Source: Candidatus Pacearchaeota archaeon (GTDB lineage Archaea; Nanobdellota; Nanobdellia; Pacearchaeales; GW2011-AR1). From it: a stretch of 64,000 nt of DNA. Position numbers and translations under genes: made by a program. Below, one piece after another: positions 4,410-47,280 of this stretch. The notes beneath the pieces were generated by a model. The model made no database searches. It was not told the DNA's origin and saw only the letters and a program-made list of their open reading frames with translations. The stretch spans positions 198,646 to 262,645 of the forward strand of contig JAVZZP010000001.1 of assembly GCA_038885615.1 (NCBI GenBank), in the 5' to 3' direction. Positions within the stretch are counted from its first letter, which is position 1, and every line of letters begins with the position of its first letter.

Positions 4410-4922
4410 TTATCCCTTTTGTTTTAATATAACAACATTAGTCATACCTCGTCTTTTTCTTTCAACTAATCCCTTGCCTTCTAATTTATCAAGAATTCTT
4501 GTAATTTTAACTTTAGTGAATTTTGTTTTATCTACTAAATCTGATTGAAAAATAGTTCCTTCAGATTCAATTATTTTCTCAAAAACTTGTTTTTCATCAT
4601 TATCAAGCTTGCTTAATATTTTTTGATAATGTTCTTTTGCGATTTTCTTTGGTTCAATTTGTTGTTTTATTGCTTTGACTTTAGTTATTATTTTCTCTTC
4701 TTTCCCGAAGAAAATTAGATATAATCCAACTATTACAATAAAAACCATTATTCCTATGCTTACATTAGTCTGGAAATTTATAGAACCCCACATGGGGCAA
4801 GTAGGACCGTGTTCACACGATTTATTAACAATATTGGTCATTGCTCTATTGAAGGAAAATATTATAAAACCCATTAATGCAACTATTCCTAAAACCATAA
4901 ATCCTGCAATTCTATTCTTCAT
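4410..4922 (-). CDS. membrane-anchored winged-helix transcriptional regulator (2 TM flanking a CEHGPTCPMW motif, C-terminal wHTH)
   Basis: N-terminal TM, Cys/His/Met-rich loop, second TM, then a MarR/ArsR-like wHTH (KITRILDKLEGKGLVERKRRG). First gene of the minus-strand cop operon. Confidence 0.5.
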   Translation of the reverse strand: MKNRIAGFMVLGIVALMGFIIFSFNRAMTNIVNKSCEHGPTCPMWGSINFQTNVSIGIMVFIVIVGLYLIFFGKEEKIITKVKAIKQQIEPKKIAKEHYQKILSKLDNDEKQVFEKIIESEGTIFQSDLVDKTKFTKVKITRILDKLEGKGLVERKRRGMTNVVILKQKG

Positions 4923-15253: not shown

Positions 15254-16378
15254 ATGGCAAAGATAAGTCCTGCATCAATAAAGTATAATATAATGGCTAG
15301 TTTTGAGGCCGAAGGCCCTTTGGAGAAACCAGACGTTATAGGAGCAGTGTTTGGACAAACTGAAGGCCTTCTTGGTAGCAATATGGAATTAAGAGAACTA
15401 CAACAAGAAGGAAAAATAGGGAGAATAGAAGTTAATCTTACAAGAGAAGATGGAAAAACAAAAGGAGAAATAATTATTCCATCTGCTTTAGACAAAACAG
15501 AAACTGCTTTAATTGCTGCCGCACTTGAAACTATTGACAAAGTTGGTCCTACTGAAGCGAAAATAACTGTTAAGAAAATTGATGATGTAAGAGGGAGCAA
15601 GAGAGATTACATCTTAAAAAGAGCAAAGGACCTCTTGTACAGCATTAATGGAGAAGCTCCGGAAATGGAAGAGATGGAACAAGAATTAAAAGAATCAATT
15701 AGGATATCAAAAGTTTCCAGCTACGGGGAGGAAGAACTGCCTTGTGGAGATATAAGCGGAACAGAGATAATTGTTGTAGAAGGAAGAGCTGATGTAGTAA
15801 ATCTTGTAAAACACAATATAACAAATGTCATAGGAATGAATGGAACAAAACTGCCAAAAGAAATAGCTAAACTTGGCGATGAGAAAGAAATAACTCTTTT
15901 TGTAGACGGAGATAGAGGCGGTTTATTGATAGCACAAAATGTTTGCGAAAATGCAAAAATAAAATATATAGCGCAGGCCCCTGATGGAAAAGAAGTTGAA
16001 GAATTGACTGGAAAAGAAATACATATAGCCCTAAGAAAAAAGGTTGCTCCGGAAGAATTTTTTAAAAAGAATAAGGATTCTTCTGGGGCCTCTGCCTCAA
16101 AAACAACTATTGGGGAAAAAGAGAAAGAAAAACTAAGAGAAATTTCTAAAGATATAAAATCAAAGTGTCTTATTTTAAATGAAAAACTAGATGTAATAAA
16201 AAAAATATCTGTTTCCTTGATAAGAAAAATAAAATTAGAAGAAAAACCTTATTTGATTCTTGTTGAAAAAGCTAATCCAAAAATAATAGAAGAAAGTGAA
16301 AAAATAGGGGCTAAATATATTGCTGCAAAAAGTTTTGAAAAAATTATAGACACAAAAGTTGAGCTAGTTTCCATATAG
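15254..16378 (+). CDS. dnaG: archaeal DnaG-type primase (TOPRIM domain)
   Basis: TEGLLG...ELRELQQEGKIGRIE N-terminal region. TOPRIM motifs IVVEGRADV and DGDRGG. Strong SD aaggagg before ATG. Confidence 0.85.
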   Translation: MAKISPASIKYNIMASFEAEGPLEKPDVIGAVFGQTEGLLGSNMELRELQQEGKIGRIEVNLTREDGKTKGEIIIPSALDKTETALIAAALETIDKVGPTEAKITVKKIDDVRGSKRDYILKRAKDLLYSINGEAPEMEEMEQELKESIRISKVSSYGEEELPCGDISGTEIIVVEGRADVVNLVKHNITNVIGMNGTKLPKEIAKLGDEKEITLFVDGDRGGLLIAQNVCENAKIKYIAQAPDGKEVEELTGKEIHIALRKKVAPEEFFKKNKDSSGASASKTTIGEKEKEKLREISKDIKSKCLILNEKLDVIKKISVSLIRKIKLEEKPYLILVEKANPKIIEESEKIGAKYIAAKSFEKIIDTKVELVSI

Positions 16379-38498: not shown

Positions 38499-38630
38499 GA
38501 GGGGATGCCGGAGTGGCCAAACGGGCAGGACTTAAGAAGCTCTCTTTAAAAAGAGACCTTGGAGAGAAACCAAGGAAATTAAGATATCCTGTGGCTTTTG
38601 CCTGCGGGGGTTCGAATCCTCCTCCCCTCA
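38499..38630 (+). tRNA. tRNA-Leu (anticodon UAA), class II, with 49-nt intron at the canonical 37/38 position (about 38537-38585)
   Basis: Acceptor GAGGGGA/UCCCCUC, 3-bp D-stem, anticodon arm CAGGA-CUUAAG[intron]A-UCCUG, long variable arm UGGCUUUUGCCUGC, T-arm GGGGG-UUCGAAU-CCUCC, discriminator A. The intron contains the hairpin ccttgg-agagaaa-ccaagg. Confidence 0.8.
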
Positions 38631-40505: not shown

Positions 40506-41315
40506 ATGGGGAAGATAGAATATAAACCAAGAAGAATTGATGATTTATTAATTGTGGAAGGATTATGCGGAATTGCTCAACTAGATAAAGAACCAAGTAC
40601 AAGAAACACCTGGTTTGTTGTTGGGGGAATTGCGACTCAGAGTTATCTTCCTAGTAGATGCAGAAGACCTACTTCCGATATAGATTTGGCTTTATTAACA
40701 CCTCTAAGTTATTCAGATTTTAAAAAATATTCAAAACCTGTAAGAGAATATTTAGGTGATAAGGGATTTAATGTAGAAGAAAAAAAGGGACATAATGCCT
40801 ATATGATAATATATACTCAAGAAGAACAAAGAGGAGTGATAGAGTTTTCTAGAAGAAATAAAAAAAAGATTTCAAAAGTTATTAAAAGATTAGAAGACGA
40901 ATTAGAAAATTCTAGAGTAAAAATAGTAGAAGGAAGAAATGAAAGTTATCGCGTTTCTAGTCCTGAAGACATTGTTTCTCCAAAAATAGTAAGGGGAATA
41001 AGAGCGCTAAAAGAATATGAGGAACTAGAAGCATATCTAAAGAATGCTTATCCTATAACCGATGATGGAATAGAAAGAGATTTAAGAAAAATAGATGAGA
41101 TAAGGGAAGAGGCAAGAATGTTAAATGATGATTTGAGTTTAGTTACTAGATTAAGGTTCGCAGCAGATGTATATGATATAAAGGTTCTGTCAGAATTAAC
41201 AGGATTTAATATAGAATATTTAAAAAAATCTATGAGTAGATGGGATTCTCTTCAAGAAGATTCCCCTGAAAAAAGAAAAATAATTAGTTGCCTTTTGCCT
41301 TTTTTAGATTTTTAA
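40506..41315 (+). CDS. AbiEii/DUF1814-like nucleotidyltransferase
   Basis: VVGGIATQSYLPSRCRRPTSDIDLAL (GG...R.TSDIDL motif) in a 269-aa protein, divergent from the MNT-like gene. Confidence 0.45.
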   Translation: MGKIEYKPRRIDDLLIVEGLCGIAQLDKEPSTRNTWFVVGGIATQSYLPSRCRRPTSDIDLALLTPLSYSDFKKYSKPVREYLGDKGFNVEEKKGHNAYMIIYTQEEQRGVIEFSRRNKKKISKVIKRLEDELENSRVKIVEGRNESYRVSSPEDIVSPKIVRGIRALKEYEELEAYLKNAYPITDDGIERDLRKIDEIREEARMLNDDLSLVTRLRFAADVYDIKVLSELTGFNIEYLKKSMSRWDSLQEDSPEKRKIISCLLPFLDF

Positions 41316-41818
41316 ATCTTTCTCTGCACAGCATAAAAAATTTCTGGAGAAATTAAAGGCTTATGGTTTCCTTTAAAGATTTTTCCTCCGAATTTTATTT
41401 CTCCGAGATAAGTTCTATTTGTTAATATTTTTTTTAGACCATTAACTGAAAGAGAATATTTTTTTGCGAGAGCATTGAGAGAAATATCTGTTTCCAAGAA
41501 TTCTTTAAAAATTGAGTGAACCTTTGACGAATCTTGGTTTTCGACTAAATTTCCATCGATTAAATCATAGCCAAGAGGTGCTCTGGACATTATTTTGCCG
41601 CATTCTGCTTTTTTTTCCATTCCTTTCTTTTGAGAATCGCCAAATTTTTGGCCGTATTTTTTAAAAGTTTCAAGATTTTTCCAATCAACTTTTTCTTCTG
41701 TATATCTATAAAAGTCTTCGGTATTTTTTGGAGCAAAAAAAGCACAAAAAGAACAAAGTTTTTTCCCAAATATTTCTTTTTCCTTAATATCTATATACCC
41801 GCATTTTTCACAAACCAT
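41312..41818 (-). CDS. serine-recombinase Recombinase-domain protein lacking the catalytic resolvase domain; N-terminal Zn ribbon
   Basis: APLGYDLIDGNLVENQDSSKVHSIFKEF...ILTNRTYLGEIKFGGKIFKGNHKPLISPEIFYAVQ matches the PF07508-type recombinase domain. N-terminal CxxC...CxxC; no catalytic Ser region. Confidence 0.55.
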   Translation of the reverse strand: MVCEKCGYIDIKEKEIFGKKLCSFCAFFAPKNTEDFYRYTEEKVDWKNLETFKKYGQKFGDSQKKGMEKKAECGKIMSRAPLGYDLIDGNLVENQDSSKVHSIFKEFLETDISLNALAKKYSLSVNGLKKILTNRTYLGEIKFGGKIFKGNHKPLISPEIFYAVQRKI

Positions 41819-41896
41819 CTTTAAATAAATTTTTTTTCTTTTAAATATATTTTGAATTCTAAAAAAGATTTAAAAGAATAATGAAAAAAACAAAAA

Positions 41897-42475
41897 ATGA
41901 GTGAAAATCTTTGGTGTGGTGCAGACGATTCAAATCATGCTGGAACAACAAAAGGCGAGTTTATTGTTGTAACTTTTTCTACACTAAAAGAAGATAGTAT
42001 TGTGAAACCATTTCCAAATCACCGCCAAAGAGATGAAACAAATTTATGGTTAGAAAACCAACGAAGAGATTTCAGATTTACTCTTTTAACAAGAGAAGAT
42101 TATAGGCATCGCGGAGATAATGTACCAAAAATTGCCCCTTTTATTGTCGCTTATTATTTAAGAGAAAAAAAAGAAGCTTATAAACAAGTTAACTTATACT
42201 TAGATGGATGGTTAAATGGAGAGACAAAAAGGTTTATTCGAGAAATTATATCTGCGGAAGGAATAGAAAGAGTTGTTGTAGATAACTTTACAAAAAAAGG
42301 AAAAAATAAATTTCAAAAAAGGCATTTTTGTCCTGAACTGGTTTATAGAGCCGATAATTTAGCACATATGTTATTTAGATATGATGGACCAATAGAAGAA
42401 TTACTTAATGACTCTCGTCTTGTTCCTTTTGAATCTCTGCAGAAAATTGCTCACGAAAAAGGATATTGTCTATAG
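41897..42475 (+). CDS. hypothetical protein (WCGADDSNHAG motif; possible C-terminal Rx5H HEPN-like motif)
   Basis: No confident family match. RADNLAH near the C-terminus fits Rx4-6H. Convergently overlaps the recombinase gene by about 70 nt. Confidence 0.25.
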   Translation: MSENLWCGADDSNHAGTTKGEFIVVTFSTLKEDSIVKPFPNHRQRDETNLWLENQRRDFRFTLLTREDYRHRGDNVPKIAPFIVAYYLREKKEAYKQVNLYLDGWLNGETKRFIREIISAEGIERVVVDNFTKKGKNKFQKRHFCPELVYRADNLAHMLFRYDGPIEELLNDSRLVPFESLQKIAHEKGYCL

Positions 42476-43286
42476 GGCTTTTTATTTTTCTTAATTCTTC
42501 GTTTGAAACATGGGTGTAGATTTGAGTTGTTGATAAATTTGTATGGCCTAAAAGTTCTTGAATTTTTCTTATATCTATGCCAGATTCAAGAAGATGGGTA
42601 GCAAAAGAATGTCTTAAAGTATGTGGGTGAACTTCTTTATCTATTCCGGCTTTTTTAGCCGCAGATTGAACTATTTTTTGGATGTTTCTTTCAGAAAGAG
42701 GTTTATCTTTTGAAGAAAAAAGATATTCTTGATTTTCATTTTTTCTTTTTTCTACAATCTCCTTTAAATCCTCTAAAAGAGAATCCGGGATATTAAAAAT
42801 TCTATCTTTTTTTCCTTTTCCTTGACGAATAAAACCAATTTTCTCATTAAAATTTATATCTTCAATTTTAAGATGCGTCAGTTCTGAAACTCTCATTCCA
42901 CAGGCATAAAGAAGAGATACCATTAATCTTGACTTTTTATTTTTTATAACTAAAATAAGACGAGAGACTTCTTCCTTTGTTAAAACGGCAGGTATCTTTT
43001 TTTCTCTTTTTGGTCTTTTTATACCTTCTGTTATATCTTTTTTCAATATTGAGGAAAAAGAAAATTTTATTGCTGCTAAAAAAGATATTATTGAAATTGC
43101 TGCCTTGTCTGAAAGTTTTTCAACAATATACTTCTTGACGTCATCTGAATCTATTTTTTCCAAGGGTTTATTAGTATAGTCTAGAAAAAGCCTGTTTTTT
43201 ATAAGATAATTTTTTATAGTGTGCTCCGAGTTCTTTGAAATTTTTAACTCTATTTCCAGTTTTTTTAAAAATTCTTCTTTTTCCAT
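42405..43286 (-). CDS. tyrosine recombinase XerC/D (XerA-like), intact
   Basis: GMRVSEL (Arg), [15 protein letters not shown] (HxxR) and IYTHV (Tyr). 293 aa; paralog of the frameshifted copy at 5134-5929. Confidence 0.85.
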   Translation of the reverse strand: MEKEEFLKKLEIELKISKNSEHTIKNYLIKNRLFLDYTNKPLEKIDSDDVKKYIVEKLSDKAAISIISFLAAIKFSFSSILKKDITEGIKRPKREKKIPAVLTKEEVSRLILVIKNKKSRLMVSLLYACGMRVSELTHLKIEDINFNEKIGFIRQGKGKKDRIFNIPDSLLEDLKEIVEKRKNENQEYLFSSKDKPLSERNIQKIVQSAAKKAGIDKEVHPHTLRHSFATHLLESGIDIRKIQELLGHTNLSTTQIYTHVSNEELRKIKSPIDNILFREQFSAEIQKEQDESH

Positions 43287-44452: not shown

Positions 44453-44760
44453 CTAAGGTAAGCTTAGTGCATAAAAATAAGGAAATTTTAGGTTCGCATA
44501 ATATATCTTATACGAACTTTTTTAGTTTTTTAAAGATAAAAAAAAGATTATTTAAACTAAGGTAAGCTTAGTACAAAAAAATTATTTGAATATTTTAATA
44601 ATAATTATCTTTAAAGAACATAAATAAGAATAAAAAAAGTTTAAGTAATACTGAGAACAAAAGAAAAAAGAACCAGACAAAATAATGCACCCCCTTAAAT
44701 AAAAGTTGGCTGAAGTATAAAATTCTTAACAGGTTTGCACAAAGGTTAACTTAGTTAACT
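44451..44760. repeat. AT-rich intergenic region with repeated hairpin elements
   Basis: actaaggtaagcttagt occurs twice, about 100 nt apart (about 44454-44470 and 44552-44568), each a 6-bp stem hairpin. Also gttcgcata...tatacgaac and gttaac-tta-gttaac palindromes. Confidence 0.4.
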
Positions 44761-45010
44761 ACTCAAAAAATCTAAAAACAATTGAAAGAATGGTAAAAAT
44801 AATAACAATCCAACCAGTTACAATCGTAACAACTAAAGGAATAAAAATAACTTTTAAATTTAAAATTCCTGTTGCCATACCAGCACCTACACTCAGAGAA
44901 ACTAGAATACTTACTATCCAACTCAAAAAAGATACTACTTTATCTAACCTAAAAGAGTTCTTGTTTTTTTCTTTTATATTTTGATCTTTTCCGTTTTTCA
45001 TATTAACCAA
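44759..45010 (-). CDS. small membrane protein, hypothetical
   Basis: 83 aa, two TM helices. Confidence 0.3.
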   Translation of the reverse strand: MVNMKNGKDQNIKEKNKNSFRLDKVVSFLSWIVSILVSLSVGAGMATGILNLKVIFIPLVVTIVTGWIVIIFTILSIVFRFFE

Positions 45011-45293
45011 TCTTTCTTTTTCTTGAAAGTAAAGTAATAGTTAAAAATATGGCTACAAAAGAAAAGGCTAAGGAGTATAAAACACTCTTTAAAGGATCTA
45101 AATATCGACCAAAATAAAGATTCTCGCTTATTGTTTTCCCAGTAGTGAAACTAAAAGAACAAAAATCCCAGGAAGAAGGAACACTTATAATGTTGTGTAC
45201 TTTTTTACATGGGACTATAGAAAAGTTAAATGAAAGATATACTAAAAGCAAAGAAAAAATAAAGGAAATTAAAATTTTCCGTGTAAATTTCAT
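45003..45293 (-). CDS. small membrane protein, hypothetical
   Basis: 96 aa, two to three TM helices. Confidence 0.3.
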   Translation of the reverse strand: MKFTRKILISFIFSLLLVYLSFNFSIVPCKKVHNIISVPSSWDFCSFSFTTGKTISENLYFGRYLDPLKSVLYSLAFSFVAIFLTITLLSRKRKIG

Positions 45294-45349
45294 AAAATAA
45301 TAGAGGTTTTGGAGTTTAAAAAGTTATTGGTTAAAACAAAAAATTAAAC

Positions 45350-45540
45350 AAAGTGTTTATAAAGATTCAAAAAAAATGGGTGTTTAAACAGCTTTTAAAA
45401 AAAAGTCTTTATTTAGAGAAAAAAACAAAGAAAAAAAATATTGTGAAAAATTATCGTCTATTTTTTTAGGTGTTTGGTGTTTAAACAGGTAAAATAAACG
45501 GCTGTTTAAATTATAAACACGCTGTTTGAACAGGTCAAAA
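45350..45540. promoter_or_regulatory. cluster of about five palindromic TGTTTAAACA / CTGTTYRAACAG motifs upstream of the wHTH gene at 45580
   Basis: gtgtttataaag, ggtgtttaaacagct, ggtgtttggtgtttaaacagg, ggctgtttaaatt, gctgtttgaacaggtc. The same motif recurs three times in tandem inside the gene (about 45860-45895). Confidence 0.5.
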
Positions 45541-45579
45541 AAAGGAAAAATTTAAAAAGGAAAAAGAAAAAATAAATTT

Positions 45580-46194
45580 ATGCTCTGGTTTTTTAAAAGA
45601 AAAAGGGAGATAGAAAACCTAAAAGAAGAAGTTATTAATTCTTTTTCTAGAGTAAAGGAAGATTTTTCAAAGATTGGATCTTGGATAAAAAATTTCGACG
45701 AAAAAAATACGAACAATGAAAAAGAGATCTTATTATTGAAGGAAAAGATTGGTTTTTTAGAAAATGAAATAGCCGAAATAAAAGAAGCTCTTGTTATCTT
45801 AAAAGGAGGGGTGTTTAAACATAAACAAACAGCTGTTTATAAACAAACAGGGGGTGTTGATGTTCAAACAGCTGTTCAAACAGCTGTTCAAACAGCTATT
45901 TTAGACAGATTAACTCCTAGTGAAAGATCAATTGTTTTAGCATTAATTTACTCTGACATGAAACTGAGTTACGAAGATCTTGCTGCGATGCTAGGAAAAG
46001 ATAAAAGCACTATAAGAGGACAAATAAACGCAATAAAGCAGAAAAGTGAGGGTTTAATAGAAGAAATAACTGAAGAAAACGGAAAAAAGAGAGTTTTTAT
46101 CCCAGAAGAAATAGGAAAAATGTTAATAAAAACTATAAAAGTGAGAGTAAAAAACAAAAAAGAAAGGGAAAAAGAAGAGAATAATCAAATCTAA
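45580..46194 (+). CDS. coiled-coil plus winged-helix DNA-binding protein with a VQTA tandem-repeat linker
   Basis: C-terminal SIVLALIYSDMKLSYEDLAAMLGKDKSTIRGQINAIK (wHTH). Linker encoded by a 12-nt tandem repeat gttcaaacagct x3. Confidence 0.5.
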   Translation: MLWFFKRKREIENLKEEVINSFSRVKEDFSKIGSWIKNFDEKNTNNEKEILLLKEKIGFLENEIAEIKEALVILKGGVFKHKQTAVYKQTGGVDVQTAVQTAVQTAILDRLTPSERSIVLALIYSDMKLSYEDLAAMLGKDKSTIRGQINAIKQKSEGLIEEITEENGKKRVFIPEEIGKMLIKTIKVRVKNKKEREKEENNQI

Positions 46195-46253
46195 AATAAA
46201 AAAGTGAGAAGCAAATTGAAATAATTTATTCGTTTAAACGAATAGTTAAAAAT

Positions 46254-46952
46254 CTATATCTCTCTTAGTCTTAAAAGAGTAGAAAGTGGGACTAATTTTT
46301 TAAAATCGGGAGATATTTTCAATTTTACTTGCTTGTTATTTTGCTTAATTTTAAAAAGTGGAACTCCTTTAAGTAGCAATTTATTCGTATAATCTCTTAT
46401 TGAAGACTCTGTAAGGTTTAAATGATTTGCTAAAACGCGATAAGTTATGTCTTCTAAACCCTGATCCTCTAAAGAATATATTGTAGAAAAAAGCAGCATC
46501 TCTCTATTAGTTAATGACTTAAATTTAACTCTTATCTCTTTCTTAATGCTATCCAATGAATCTAGGAGATCTTGGGCCTTTTTTAATTCATCTATTGATG
46601 ACTTTTTAATATCAGGACTTATAAAAAAATGTCCAAATGAGGAATTTATGTCTGTCTGTTGGTTTGTCTGTCTGTCTGTTGGTTTGTCTGTTGTAACCCC
46701 CTTATTTCCTGTGGAAATATCGAAATTTTGGCTTTTTAACCCCTTTATTTCCTGTGGAAGTGCTGTGAAATCTGTTGGATTATCTGCTGTTATTTGATTT
46801 TCTGTCGTACTTTTTCCTTCTATCTGCTGTTTTTTTTGTGGGGCCTCTTTTTGCTCTAATTCATAAATCTTTTCATTTAATCTCTTAATCTCTTCTTTTA
46901 AAAATGAAATTTCTTCTTTAACTTTAATAAATGCCTCTTTTACAGGATCCAT
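46254..46952 (-). CDS. coiled-coil plus winged-helix DNA-binding protein, paralog of 45580-46194, with a repetitive linker
   Basis: C-terminal MLLFSTIYSLEDQGLEDITYRVLANHLNLTESSIRDYTNKLL. The coding region has internal nucleotide repeats (gtctgttggtttgtctgtct x2; aaccccttatttcctgtggaa x2). Confidence 0.5.
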   Translation of the reverse strand: MDPVKEAFIKVKEEISFLKEEIKRLNEKIYELEQKEAPQKKQQIEGKSTTENQITADNPTDFTALPQEIKGLKSQNFDISTGNKGVTTDKPTDRQTNQQTDINSSFGHFFISPDIKKSSIDELKKAQDLLDSLDSIKKEIRVKFKSLTNREMLLFSTIYSLEDQGLEDITYRVLANHLNLTESSIRDYTNKLLLKGVPLFKIKQNNKQVKLKISPDFKKLVPLSTLLRLREI

Positions 46953-46986
46953 AAAAAAAACAATACAAATGCCTTTAAAATTTTAT

Positions 46987-47280
46987 TTATTGTTTATAAT
47001 AACTTTTATTTTTTATAATTGAGTTATATTTTTCATAAACCTGACTTGGAATTGACCAACGAATTCTTTTTGAGTAATCTTTTCCGTTGCTATTTTTAGA
47101 TATTCTAATAACCAAATTCTCTTTTTCAAGCTCTAGAAGAACGTTTTTAATAAACTCTTCATCCCTAACTAACTCTTCTGCTATTTCAGAGGTAAAAAGA
47201 GATCTAGGAAAAGAATTAAAAAGGCAAAAAACGACATTTTCTTTAATCTTTTTAATTTTTTCTTTTGAAAGTTTGGGCAT
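46987..47280 (-). CDS. small winged-helix DNA-binding protein
   Basis: FTSEIAEELVRDEEFIKNVLLELEKENLVIR pattern. Confidence 0.45.
   Translation of the reverse strand: MPKLSKEKIKKIKENVVFCLFNSFPRSLFTSEIAEELVRDEEFIKNVLLELEKENLVIRISKNSNGKDYSKRIRWSIPSQVYEKYNSIIKNKSYYKQ

Follow-up and report, generated by a model that had tools for sequence, protein, structure and literature searches.

A palindromic site array common to the promoter and the coding sequence of a predicted winged-helix gene conserved among Pacearchaeota and Woesearchaeota

Introduction

Operators inside coding sequences are known, such as lac O2 in lacZ, gal OI in galE, and purR O2 in purR. In each case, a promoter-type operator recurs some hundreds of base pairs downstream within an open reading frame (ORF), with looping or a roadblock as its supposed mode of action; purR O2 lies inside the regulator's own gene. 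Regulators of the MarR, Lrs14, and ArsR types bind palindromes as dimers and commonly occupy their own promoters. A chromosome-organizing site can also lie in the gene of its binder, as parS does inside spo0J/parB of Bacillus subtilis. Here we describe a 64-kb stretch of DNA from a Candidatus Pacearchaeota archaeon (the window, taken at its full length), in which copies of the palindrome TGTTTAAACA and its variants lie both upstream of and inside the gene of a 204-amino acid (aa) protein with a predicted winged helix. The Pacearchaeota and Woesearchaeota are uncultured and, to our knowledge, almost nothing is known of their gene regulation.

Compared with lac O2, gal OI, and purR O2, the present locus carries an array of four to five intragenic sites in two reading frames, which appears to set the whole sequence of a protein linker, and it is conserved across a whole archaeal group in the context of an archaeal promoter with a transcription factor B recognition element (BRE) and a TATA box. 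The 204-aa protein has the same C-terminal fold as the Lrs14/AbfR and MarR-type archaeal regulators in Foldseek comparisons, but it scores far below the cut-offs of these families, lacks the MarR-type ligand-binding dimerization core, and bears an extra 75-residue N-terminal helix and a repeat linker. The parS-Spo0J, RacA-ram, MatP-matS, and Noc-NBS systems are similar in having a 14–16-bp palindrome in the binder's gene, a coiled coil joined to a DNA-binding domain, and sites that are tolerated in coding sequences. In contrast, there is no ParB, MerR, or ribbon-helix-helix (RHH) domain here and no nearby gene of a partner ATPase, and most extra sites are in promoters. Rickettsia palindromic elements, too, are palindromic DNA translated within proteins, and one in-frame phosphoesterase insertion found here is of that kind; however, the present unit of 12–14 bp is much shorter, has a fixed position in orthologs, and is not dispersed in the window.

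Results

Site array in the window

The array consists of the following features (coordinates of the window):

45294–45579, unstranded: intergenic control region of 286 bp between the genes of a 96-aa protein and the 204-aa protein, bearing the upstream site array
45379–45392, unstranded: upstream full site 1, GGTGTTTAAACAGC, with a perfect 10-bp core palindrome
45476–45489, unstranded: upstream full site 2, GGTGTTTAAACAGG, with the half-site GGTGTTTG just before it (45469–45476)
45501–45520, unstranded: inverted half-site pair, GCTGTTTAAA ... TAAACAC
45521–45534, unstranded: promoter-proximal full site 3, GCTGTTTGAACAGG, ending 16 nt upstream of the TATA-like box
45551–45558, plus strand: TATA-like box TTTAAAAA, at −29 from the ATG at 45580
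45580–46194, plus strand: gene of the 204-aa protein, with a long N-terminal helix (coiled coil), a QT-repeat linker, a C-terminal winged helix, and a basic tail
45810–45823, plus strand: intragenic full site in reading frame 1, GTG TTT AAA CAT (VFKH), with a perfect palindrome core at 45812–45821
45831–45840, plus strand: intragenic half-site GCTGTTTATA, codons A V Y
45859–45897, plus strand: three tandem intragenic sites with 12-bp spacing, (TGTTCAAACAGC)x3, encoding three VQTA units in reading frame 2

Against 0.28 copies expected from dinucleotide shuffles, the window contains three of the perfect palindrome TGTTTAAACA (45381, 45478, and 45812), a number that none of 100 shuffles reached. 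Seven copies of the wider form TGTTYRAACA (45381, 45478, 45523, 45812, 45861, 45873, and 45885; 0.65 expected) are all confined to 514 bp (45381–45894), where three precede the 204-aa gene and four fall within its coding sequence. The region is AT-rich, with a GC content of ~28%; because the enrichment is gone when one mismatch is allowed (13 copies against 10.1 expected), the signal reflects the clustering of the sites, not base composition. The preliminary description of this locus had counted about five upstream copies within 190 bp, which is fair given the three full sites and four half or partial sites (45353, 45469, 45501, and 45514). It had also reported the triple tandem inside the gene, which Tandem Repeats Finder recovers exactly (45861–45897, period 12, 3.1 copies, 100% match, unit TGTTCAAACAGC, peptide VQTAVQTAVQTA), and had overlooked the fourth full intragenic site, VFKH. 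The position of the TATA-like box implies a leaderless or near-leaderless mRNA.

Across the window the motif is not uniformly frequent: besides the cluster, the sole other full site is TGTTTGGACA at 15348–15357, isolated within the ORF 15254–16378.

Conservation of the site in homologous promoters

We fetched 80 homologous loci (L001–L080) from related species for comparison. The density of TGTTYRAACA in them was 3.2 per kb between −300 and 0, 2.3 per kb in the coding sequence, and 0.05 per kb in the flanks (414 kb). Far from being absent from homologous promoters, the motif is thus enriched 63-fold over the 300 bp that precede the 204-aa homolog. In a positional histogram of five forms of the motif (TGTTTAAACA, TGTCCAAACA/TGTTTGGACA, and TGTTCAAACA/TGTTTGAACA), the filled bins were solely −300 to 0 and +200 to +400. 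An unbiased search for enriched upstream 8-mers ranked GCTGTTTA first, with 134 copies in 55 loci and a 100-fold enrichment; GGTGTTTA, CTGTCCAA, and AACAGCTG were the other top words, the first two of which share with GCTGTTTA an enrichment of 60–100-fold. The logo built from 131 non-coding sites reads GC-TGTYYAAACA-GC over 14 bp, with A at position −1 in 1% of the sites and T at position +10 in none. Half-sites recur at 10–13 bp and full sites at times at 12 bp, like the tandem in the coding sequence.

A TATA element, TTTATAAA, lies at −32 or −29 from the ATG in 50 of the 80 loci, which again implies leaderless mRNA. The site usually abuts the BRE/TATA on its upstream side, where archaeal activators usually sit, and it occurs upstream of the TATA box in both orientations. 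The promoter and genes of the neighboring operon (a 97-aa protein and a 232-aa protein, described below) carry no copy of the motif in the 80 loci. Recurring in the promoter of its own gene across the orthologs, the motif is, judged from these sequence comparisons, a conserved cis element.

A second conserved palindrome, TTATCGACGATAA (ATCGNCGA), is located in the middle of the control region at about −150 from the ATG in 22 of the 80 loci, with one half of the site array on either side. It is degenerate in the window (45447–45458, TTATCGTCTATT) and may be a candidate site of another factor.

Nucleotide-level constraint on the coding copies

In 76 of the 80 species, down to 47% protein identity, the coding copies are found at identical codons of the gene, and essentially every one of the 80 homologs has three VQT units (or two and a degenerate one). 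With the unit number constant across the family, a slippage-prone repeat finds no support, and the slippage by which the preliminary description had proposed that the array might evolve was rejected.

The xVQT tetrapeptides are encoded by an exact TGTYCAAACA in 179 of 226 cases, against 12.6 expected from codon usage. Of the 226 residues ahead of VQT, 188 are Ala, Gly, or Pro and 213 have a codon ending in T (GCT, GGT, CCT), which fits the G/C flank of the site. The copies in reading frame 1 encode other residues, LSKQ (TGTCCAAACA; CTG TCC AAA CAR) or VFKQ/H (TGTTTAAACA; GTG TTT AAA CAN), and 43 of 48 LSKQ or VFKQ copies retain the motif (4.5 expected), even though CTG and TCC are the codons that these genes use least for Leu and Ser. 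When the residues of this copy switch from LS to VF, the DNA remains a valid variant of the site. Both reading frames carry the motif in 40 of the 80 loci.

Codon choice within the linker is distinct from that in the rest of the gene, with Thr as ACA in 86% versus 43%, Ala as GCT in 88% versus 40%, Gln as CAA in 84% versus 61%, and Val as GTA in 3% versus 30%. Column by column, every sequence (100%) has CAA for Gln96, Gln100, and Gln104 and ACA for Thr105. The synonymous sites of invariant residues in the winged helix-turn-helix (wHTH) domain are saturated, with CAA in 67% for Gln148, ACA in 42% for Thr144, and the top codon in 30% for Gly147. The variant in the gene also follows the variant in the promoter: promoters of the CC type (TGTCCAAACA) pair with GTC CAA in the gene and those of the T type with GTT CAA (odds ratio 21.6, p 1.4e-6, Spearman rho 0.65; values not corrected for phylogeny). 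A promoter motif under selection at the DNA level is thus found inside the ORF, as in an intragenic auxiliary operator. Read in frame 2, the perfect palindrome would give GTT followed by the stop codon TAA, to which CAA is the nearest sense codon, so VQT would follow, and VQTA is likely the nearest sense reading of GTTTAAACAGC. This pattern shows a linker whose amino acids are apparently dictated by the DNA site and not by the protein. The earlier suggestion that the coding sequence doubles as binding sites is strongly supported by the frozen synonymous sites, the two frames with rare codons, and the promoter-coding covariation.

Two explanations confined to the gene product can be weighed against these data. 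If the QT repeats were kept for a function of the protein only, their uniform codons would stem from repeat homogenization and their likeness to the promoter would be coincidental. The 4-residue xQTx repeats align between the 204-aa protein and its 232-aa paralog, the repeat therefore predating their divergence, and the paralog has frozen codons with no copies in its promoter, both of which agree with such a role. We nevertheless consider it highly improbable, as the frame-1 copy keeps the motif with rare codons while encoding LSKQ/VFKQ, the copies in the promoter, besides being conserved over 80 species, vary in step with the coding variant, and the linker is predicted to be disordered. A constraint on the mRNA, such as a linker hairpin controlling translation or stability with unrelated copies in the promoter, is just as hard to sustain. 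The linker RNA of the window does fold at −28.9 kcal/mol (z = −4.5), and that of one homolog has z = −5.6, but a set of 30 diverse linkers gave no consensus pair in RNAalifold, the fold is lost (z = −1.1 and −1.7) in homologs whose linkers have PPP or GGG variants and yet keep the core motif, and the copies upstream of TATA, in both orientations, are not transcribed with the gene. On the missing consensus pairs and the unfolded variants, the RNA-structure reading was rejected.

The 204-aa protein, its paralog, and the 97-aa protein

The AlphaFold model of the 204-aa protein consists of a single helix (residues 2–75), a segment with a predicted local distance difference test (pLDDT) score below 50 (76–104), a winged helix with pLDDT ~90 (105–183), and a basic tail. 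The winged helix has the canonical order of a three-helix bundle (113–124, 131–138, and 142–155) followed by a β-hairpin wing (strands 161–164 and 170–173). Foldseek searches of the PDB matched it to MepR, MexR, AbfR2, and SmtB with probability 1.0, E-values of 5e-4 to 5e-3 (MepR/MexR 5e-4; AbfR2, 6cmv, 9.6e-4), and 15–25% identity; the C-terminal domain thus has a MarR/Lrs14/ArsR-type fold. No match to the MarR Pfam family PF01047 was found at E ≤ 0.1. The best Pfam matches, Sigma70_r4 (19.2 bits versus 24.1) and HTH_38 (18.5 versus 27), were below cut-off, as were the NCBIfam models Lrs14 NF040939 (16 bits versus 90) and Sta1 NF053606 (19.7 versus 80). A search of PDB sequences with the family profile returned coiled-coil noise only and no close solved structure. 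The family appears to be uncharacterized, with no profile membership in MarR, Lrs14, or sigma-r4, and a literature search on the motif and on DPANN winged-helix factors gave nothing relevant, the matches to the motif being primers with PmeI sites.

Database searches returned 2,920 relatives of the protein at E ≤ 1e-3, and a search of species-representative genomes found relatives in 436 of them. The exact 204-aa sequence had no record among public assemblies. All named relatives belong to DPANN, in the Pace/Woesearchaeota group, except two records from metagenome-assembled genomes labelled 'Candidatus Omnitrophica bacterium' and 'bacterium'; the homologs are labelled Pacearchaeota, Woesearchaeota, or Nanoarchaeota. 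In an alignment of 32 homologs, the best-conserved stretch is the linker that is predicted to be disordered (consensus K-Q-x-Q-T-A-V-x-K-Q-T-x4-V-Q-T-P-V-Q-T-A-V-Q-T). The recognition helix KSTIRGQIN is nearly invariant, as is the TGT...ACA core of the site.

The N-terminus reads MFxFFKKKKE (hydrophobic/basic) and is followed in the long helix by the invariant residues S21, F22, D28, and W35 and the nearly invariant D40. An IKEAFxKIKEDI motif is common to this helix and the N-terminal helix of the paralog. Such conservation suggests an interaction surface (hetero-oligomer or membrane contact) and not a generic coiled coil.

Two further genes downstream, organized as one operon, complete the cluster:

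46254–46952, minus strand: gene of the 232-aa protein, a distant paralog with coiled coil, linker, and wHTH, in convergent orientation to the 204-aa gene
46649–46694, minus strand: paralog linker repeat TDKPTDRQTNQQTD, made of coding-strand ACAGAC/ACAAAC units
46987–47280, minus strand: gene of the 97-aa putative wHTH protein, the first gene of the operon shared with the paralog

The 204-aa and 232-aa families align in HHalign with a probability of 95.8% (E 6.9e-9) over the N-terminal helix, the linker, and the wHTH, the linkers aligning as VQTxVQTxVQT to VPTDrQTdxQTd. BLASTP alone detected no similarity between the two, but the profile alignment establishes them as true distant paralogs. The preliminary description had seen a like domain layout and a separate repetitive linker in the convergent gene, and both are borne out, the repeat being called by Tandem Repeats Finder at 46649–46691 (period 20, 100%). 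It had also spoken of three wHTH proteins; this holds for the 204-aa fold and for the 232-aa paralog, whereas the 97-aa protein resembles a wHTH only weakly, through a below-cut-off match to Pfam HTH_69 (E 1.3e-4), and shows no relation to the other two families at the HHalign level.

The paralog linker GVPTDKPTDRQTNQQTD consists of ACAGAC/ACAAAC units and is locally pure (ACAG)n, with an almost T-free coding strand. Its codons are strongly biased, Asp being GAC in 97% versus 31% elsewhere, Arg AGA in 94% versus 49%, and Thr ACA in 92% versus 54%. No ACAGAC-type repeats were found outside the paralog gene in the window or the 80 loci; therefore, there was no ground for extending the idea of a 'self-site' to the paralog. 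The promoter of the operon combines a TATA box with AAACCGAATAAC in 25 loci, where the conserved AAACCGAATAAC stands downstream of the TATA box and ahead of the start codon of the 97-aa homolog (for example, L006, ~4815–4840; L007; L015; L019). This sequence is a candidate operator of the 97-aa operon, unrelated to the TGTTTAAACA motif.

Sites at other loci

A scan of metagenomes with the non-coding tandem TGTTTAAACAGCTGTTTAAAC gave 14 stretches, five of which lie at homologs of the 204-aa locus. In others, the tandem precedes the TATA box of a gene unrelated to this one (L083, L084/L086), falls in the part of a gene that encodes the N-terminal signal of a secreted or lipoprotein-like protein, where it is read in the third frame as CLNSCLNS in at least two diverged orthologs, or is found in a Xer gene, where it encodes LFKQLFKQ (L085, 2375–2396) and arose by substitution with the length unchanged. 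In an Lhr-associated metallophosphoesterase (L092, 830–930, minus strand), a 16-residue in-frame insertion, LFKQLFKQPDRQTDNKTNRQ, joins a tandem site of the 204 type to ACAGAC repeats of the paralog type, like a transplanted 'linker cassette'. The tandem also stands at the end of serine-recombinase elements (L089/L090/L093). The positions of the CLNSCLNS tandem and of the secondary clusters are as follows:

L081 6330–6351, L082 625–646, and L087 92–113: CLNSCLNS tandem
L019 528–688, L021 1898–1958, L026 1905–1966, L089 2782–2803, L090 3396–3417, and L093 1878–1899: secondary clusters

These secondary clusters lie beside serine-recombinase, HNH-like, and small RHH-like genes that resemble integrated mobile elements, and may be attachment sites or mark elements that borrow a host factor.

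A scan of viral contigs for the tandem site gave no match. The presence of the site at other loci points to a factor that probably has a small regulon and a wider role.

One might instead regard the motif as a selfish short palindromic repeat, like the Rickettsia palindromic elements or miniature inverted-repeat transposable elements, whose conservation reflects spread and not function. It is palindromic, it occurs in frame within other genes (most clearly as the 16-aa phosphoesterase insertion), and copies stand at the ends of serine-recombinase elements. Nevertheless, we give this reading very little credit: the copies hold the same codons of the same gene in nearly all species, the window has one cluster and one isolated site in place of dispersed copies, the Xer site arose with no change of length, and the viral contigs hold no copy.

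Genomic neighborhood and a possible chromosome-organizing role

Two small membrane protein genes stand upstream of the 204-aa gene:

45003–45293, minus strand: gene of the 96-aa small membrane protein, divergent, with a control region common with the 204-aa gene
44759–45010, minus strand: gene of the 83-aa small membrane protein, downstream of the 96-aa gene

The 232-aa homolog follows the 204-aa homolog convergently in 79 of the 80 loci, and the 97-aa homolog is present in 75. Small membrane proteins are encoded upstream in at least 31 loci (the 83-aa homolog in 31, the 96-aa homolog in 11). Beyond the 97-aa gene, the Lhr helicase and its metallophosphoesterase partner are divergent neighbors, and Lhr is found in 25 of the 80 loci. 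Between 38 and 52 kb, the genes around the cluster encode membrane proteins, TrkA, Xer, Lhr, and the phosphoesterase. The XerA-type tyrosine recombinase gene (42405–43286, minus strand) lies beside a recombinase-domain fragment (41312–41818, minus strand) and unannotated ORFs (40506–43286). An Rfam tRNA match of 132 nt (38499–38630, plus strand; 41.4 bits), not called by ARAGORN, is presumably an intron-containing archaeal tRNA; together with the taxonomic labels of the homologs, it marks the DNA as archaeal. A replication origin of the origin recognition box (ORB)/orc1 type was considered and rejected, as the cumulative skew rises steadily from 36 to 64 kb and no Orc1/Cdc6 was seen among the genes at 38–52 kb.

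The array could also be a chromosome-organizing or centromere-like nucleation site, on which the protein acts like ParB-parS, RacA-ram, or MatP-matS and transcription control is secondary. The sites cover ~550 bp of promoter and gene body as the only cluster in 64 kb, the protein joins a long coiled coil to a hydrophobic/basic N-terminus, and in 25 of the 80 loci a Xer gene stands no more than 3 kb away from the 204-aa homolog. Sites within coding sequences in three frames, including the unrelated Xer, phosphoesterase, and secreted-protein genes, keep this reading alive. On the other side, the neighborhood lacks ParA, SMC, and Orc1 genes, the GC skew does not switch at 45.4 kb, and the protein has no ParB-type domain (no ParB match in Pfam and NCBIfam, and no ParA-type ATPase among the neighbor genes). 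Moreover, the additional sites flanking the 80 loci favor intergenic DNA (16 of 26, though ~70% of the flank bases are in ORFs, leaving ~30% non-ORF bases), and the independent targets carry their sites just upstream of TATA, like a promoter element. Taken together, we regard a chiefly organizing role as rather unlikely.

Discussion

Proposed mechanism

We favor, as the probable reading, operator arrays for a palindrome-binding dimeric winged-helix factor, most probably the 204-aa protein itself, which would regulate its own gene, perhaps with looping. The autoregulatory arrays of the preliminary description are thus supported. The presence of the sites, their conservation and placement, their constraint at the nucleotide level, and the winged-helix fold come directly from the analysis, and the binding, the binder, the looping, and the sign of regulation are inferred. 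On the most parsimonious assumption, the 204-aa protein would be the dimeric winged-helix factor that binds the 14-bp GC-TGTYYAAACA-GC; GCTGTTTAAACAGC is taken as its predicted target. There would be two arrays, one at −50 to −300 ending just upstream of the BRE/TATA and the other at +230 to +320 in the linker-coding DNA. The 75-residue N-terminal helix, as a coiled coil, would bridge protein bound on both arrays, so that the promoter, together with the gene's 5' half, may be looped or coated. At low occupancy, the upstream array would activate transcription in a positive feedback; at high occupancy, the intragenic array would repress it through a roadblock or loop, giving negative feedback. 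The common control region may also govern the divergent membrane-protein genes.

Some observations weigh against the proposed circuit. The statistics over the 80 species ignore phylogeny. The linker codons of the paralog are frozen too, with no promoter copies, so part of the linker bias could have another cause common to the paralogs. The tandem inside unrelated coding sequences is a pattern more typical of chromosome-organizing sites than of operators. Mutual information between residues and site type in the three proteins is diffuse and phylogenetic-looking, with none in the recognition helix, and other candidates for the binder are the paralog, the 97-aa protein, and some unlinked factor.

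This last point amounts to a separate reading, in which the sites are real operators read by another protein (the 232-aa paralog, the 97-aa wHTH protein, a paralog heterodimer, or an unlinked factor) and the 204-aa gene is a target. The three DNA-binding genes are syntenic in 75–79 of the 80 loci, the paralogs share an N-terminal helix motif through which they could heterodimerize, and covariation did not tie the site to the 204-aa recognition helix. We consider it improbable, though deserving of attention: the motif is absent from the promoter and genes of the 97-aa/232-aa operon, the nearly invariant KSTIRGQIN matches the invariant TGT...ACA core, and self-adjacent site arrays are the usual mark of autoregulated MarR/Lrs14-type factors.

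If the 204-aa protein does read the arrays, the intragenic sites must be kept, and the linker peptide would then be dictated by DNA, (GC)T GTT CAA ACA GC(T) being translated as A-V-Q-T-A. A bolder extension, which we offer tentatively and hold to be doubtful in its full scope, is that the disordered linker is a by-product of DNA function, a translated operator array in which selection on the sites writes the protein sequence. An equivalent array in the paralog would then be possible, cassettes could be written into other genes in any frame, and Pacearchaeota and Woesearchaeota might have a genome-wide protein-DNA code over coding sequences, possibly serving chromosome organization too. The operator array was possibly captured by fusion of a coiled-coil gene and a winged-helix autoregulator gene across an operator-bearing spacer.

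Significance

For the Pacearchaeota and Woesearchaeota, the analysis yields a well-defined 14-bp cis element, a candidate cognate factor that counts 2,920 proteins in the databases and occurs in no fewer than 436 species-level genomes, and a directly testable autoregulatory circuit. The linker would be an unusually clean natural overlapping code, a protein segment that is conserved because its DNA is a binding-site array. It thereby serves as a warning that conservation of disordered linkers need not mean a function at the protein level, and the locus may provide a model for the fusion of regulatory DNA with coding DNA.

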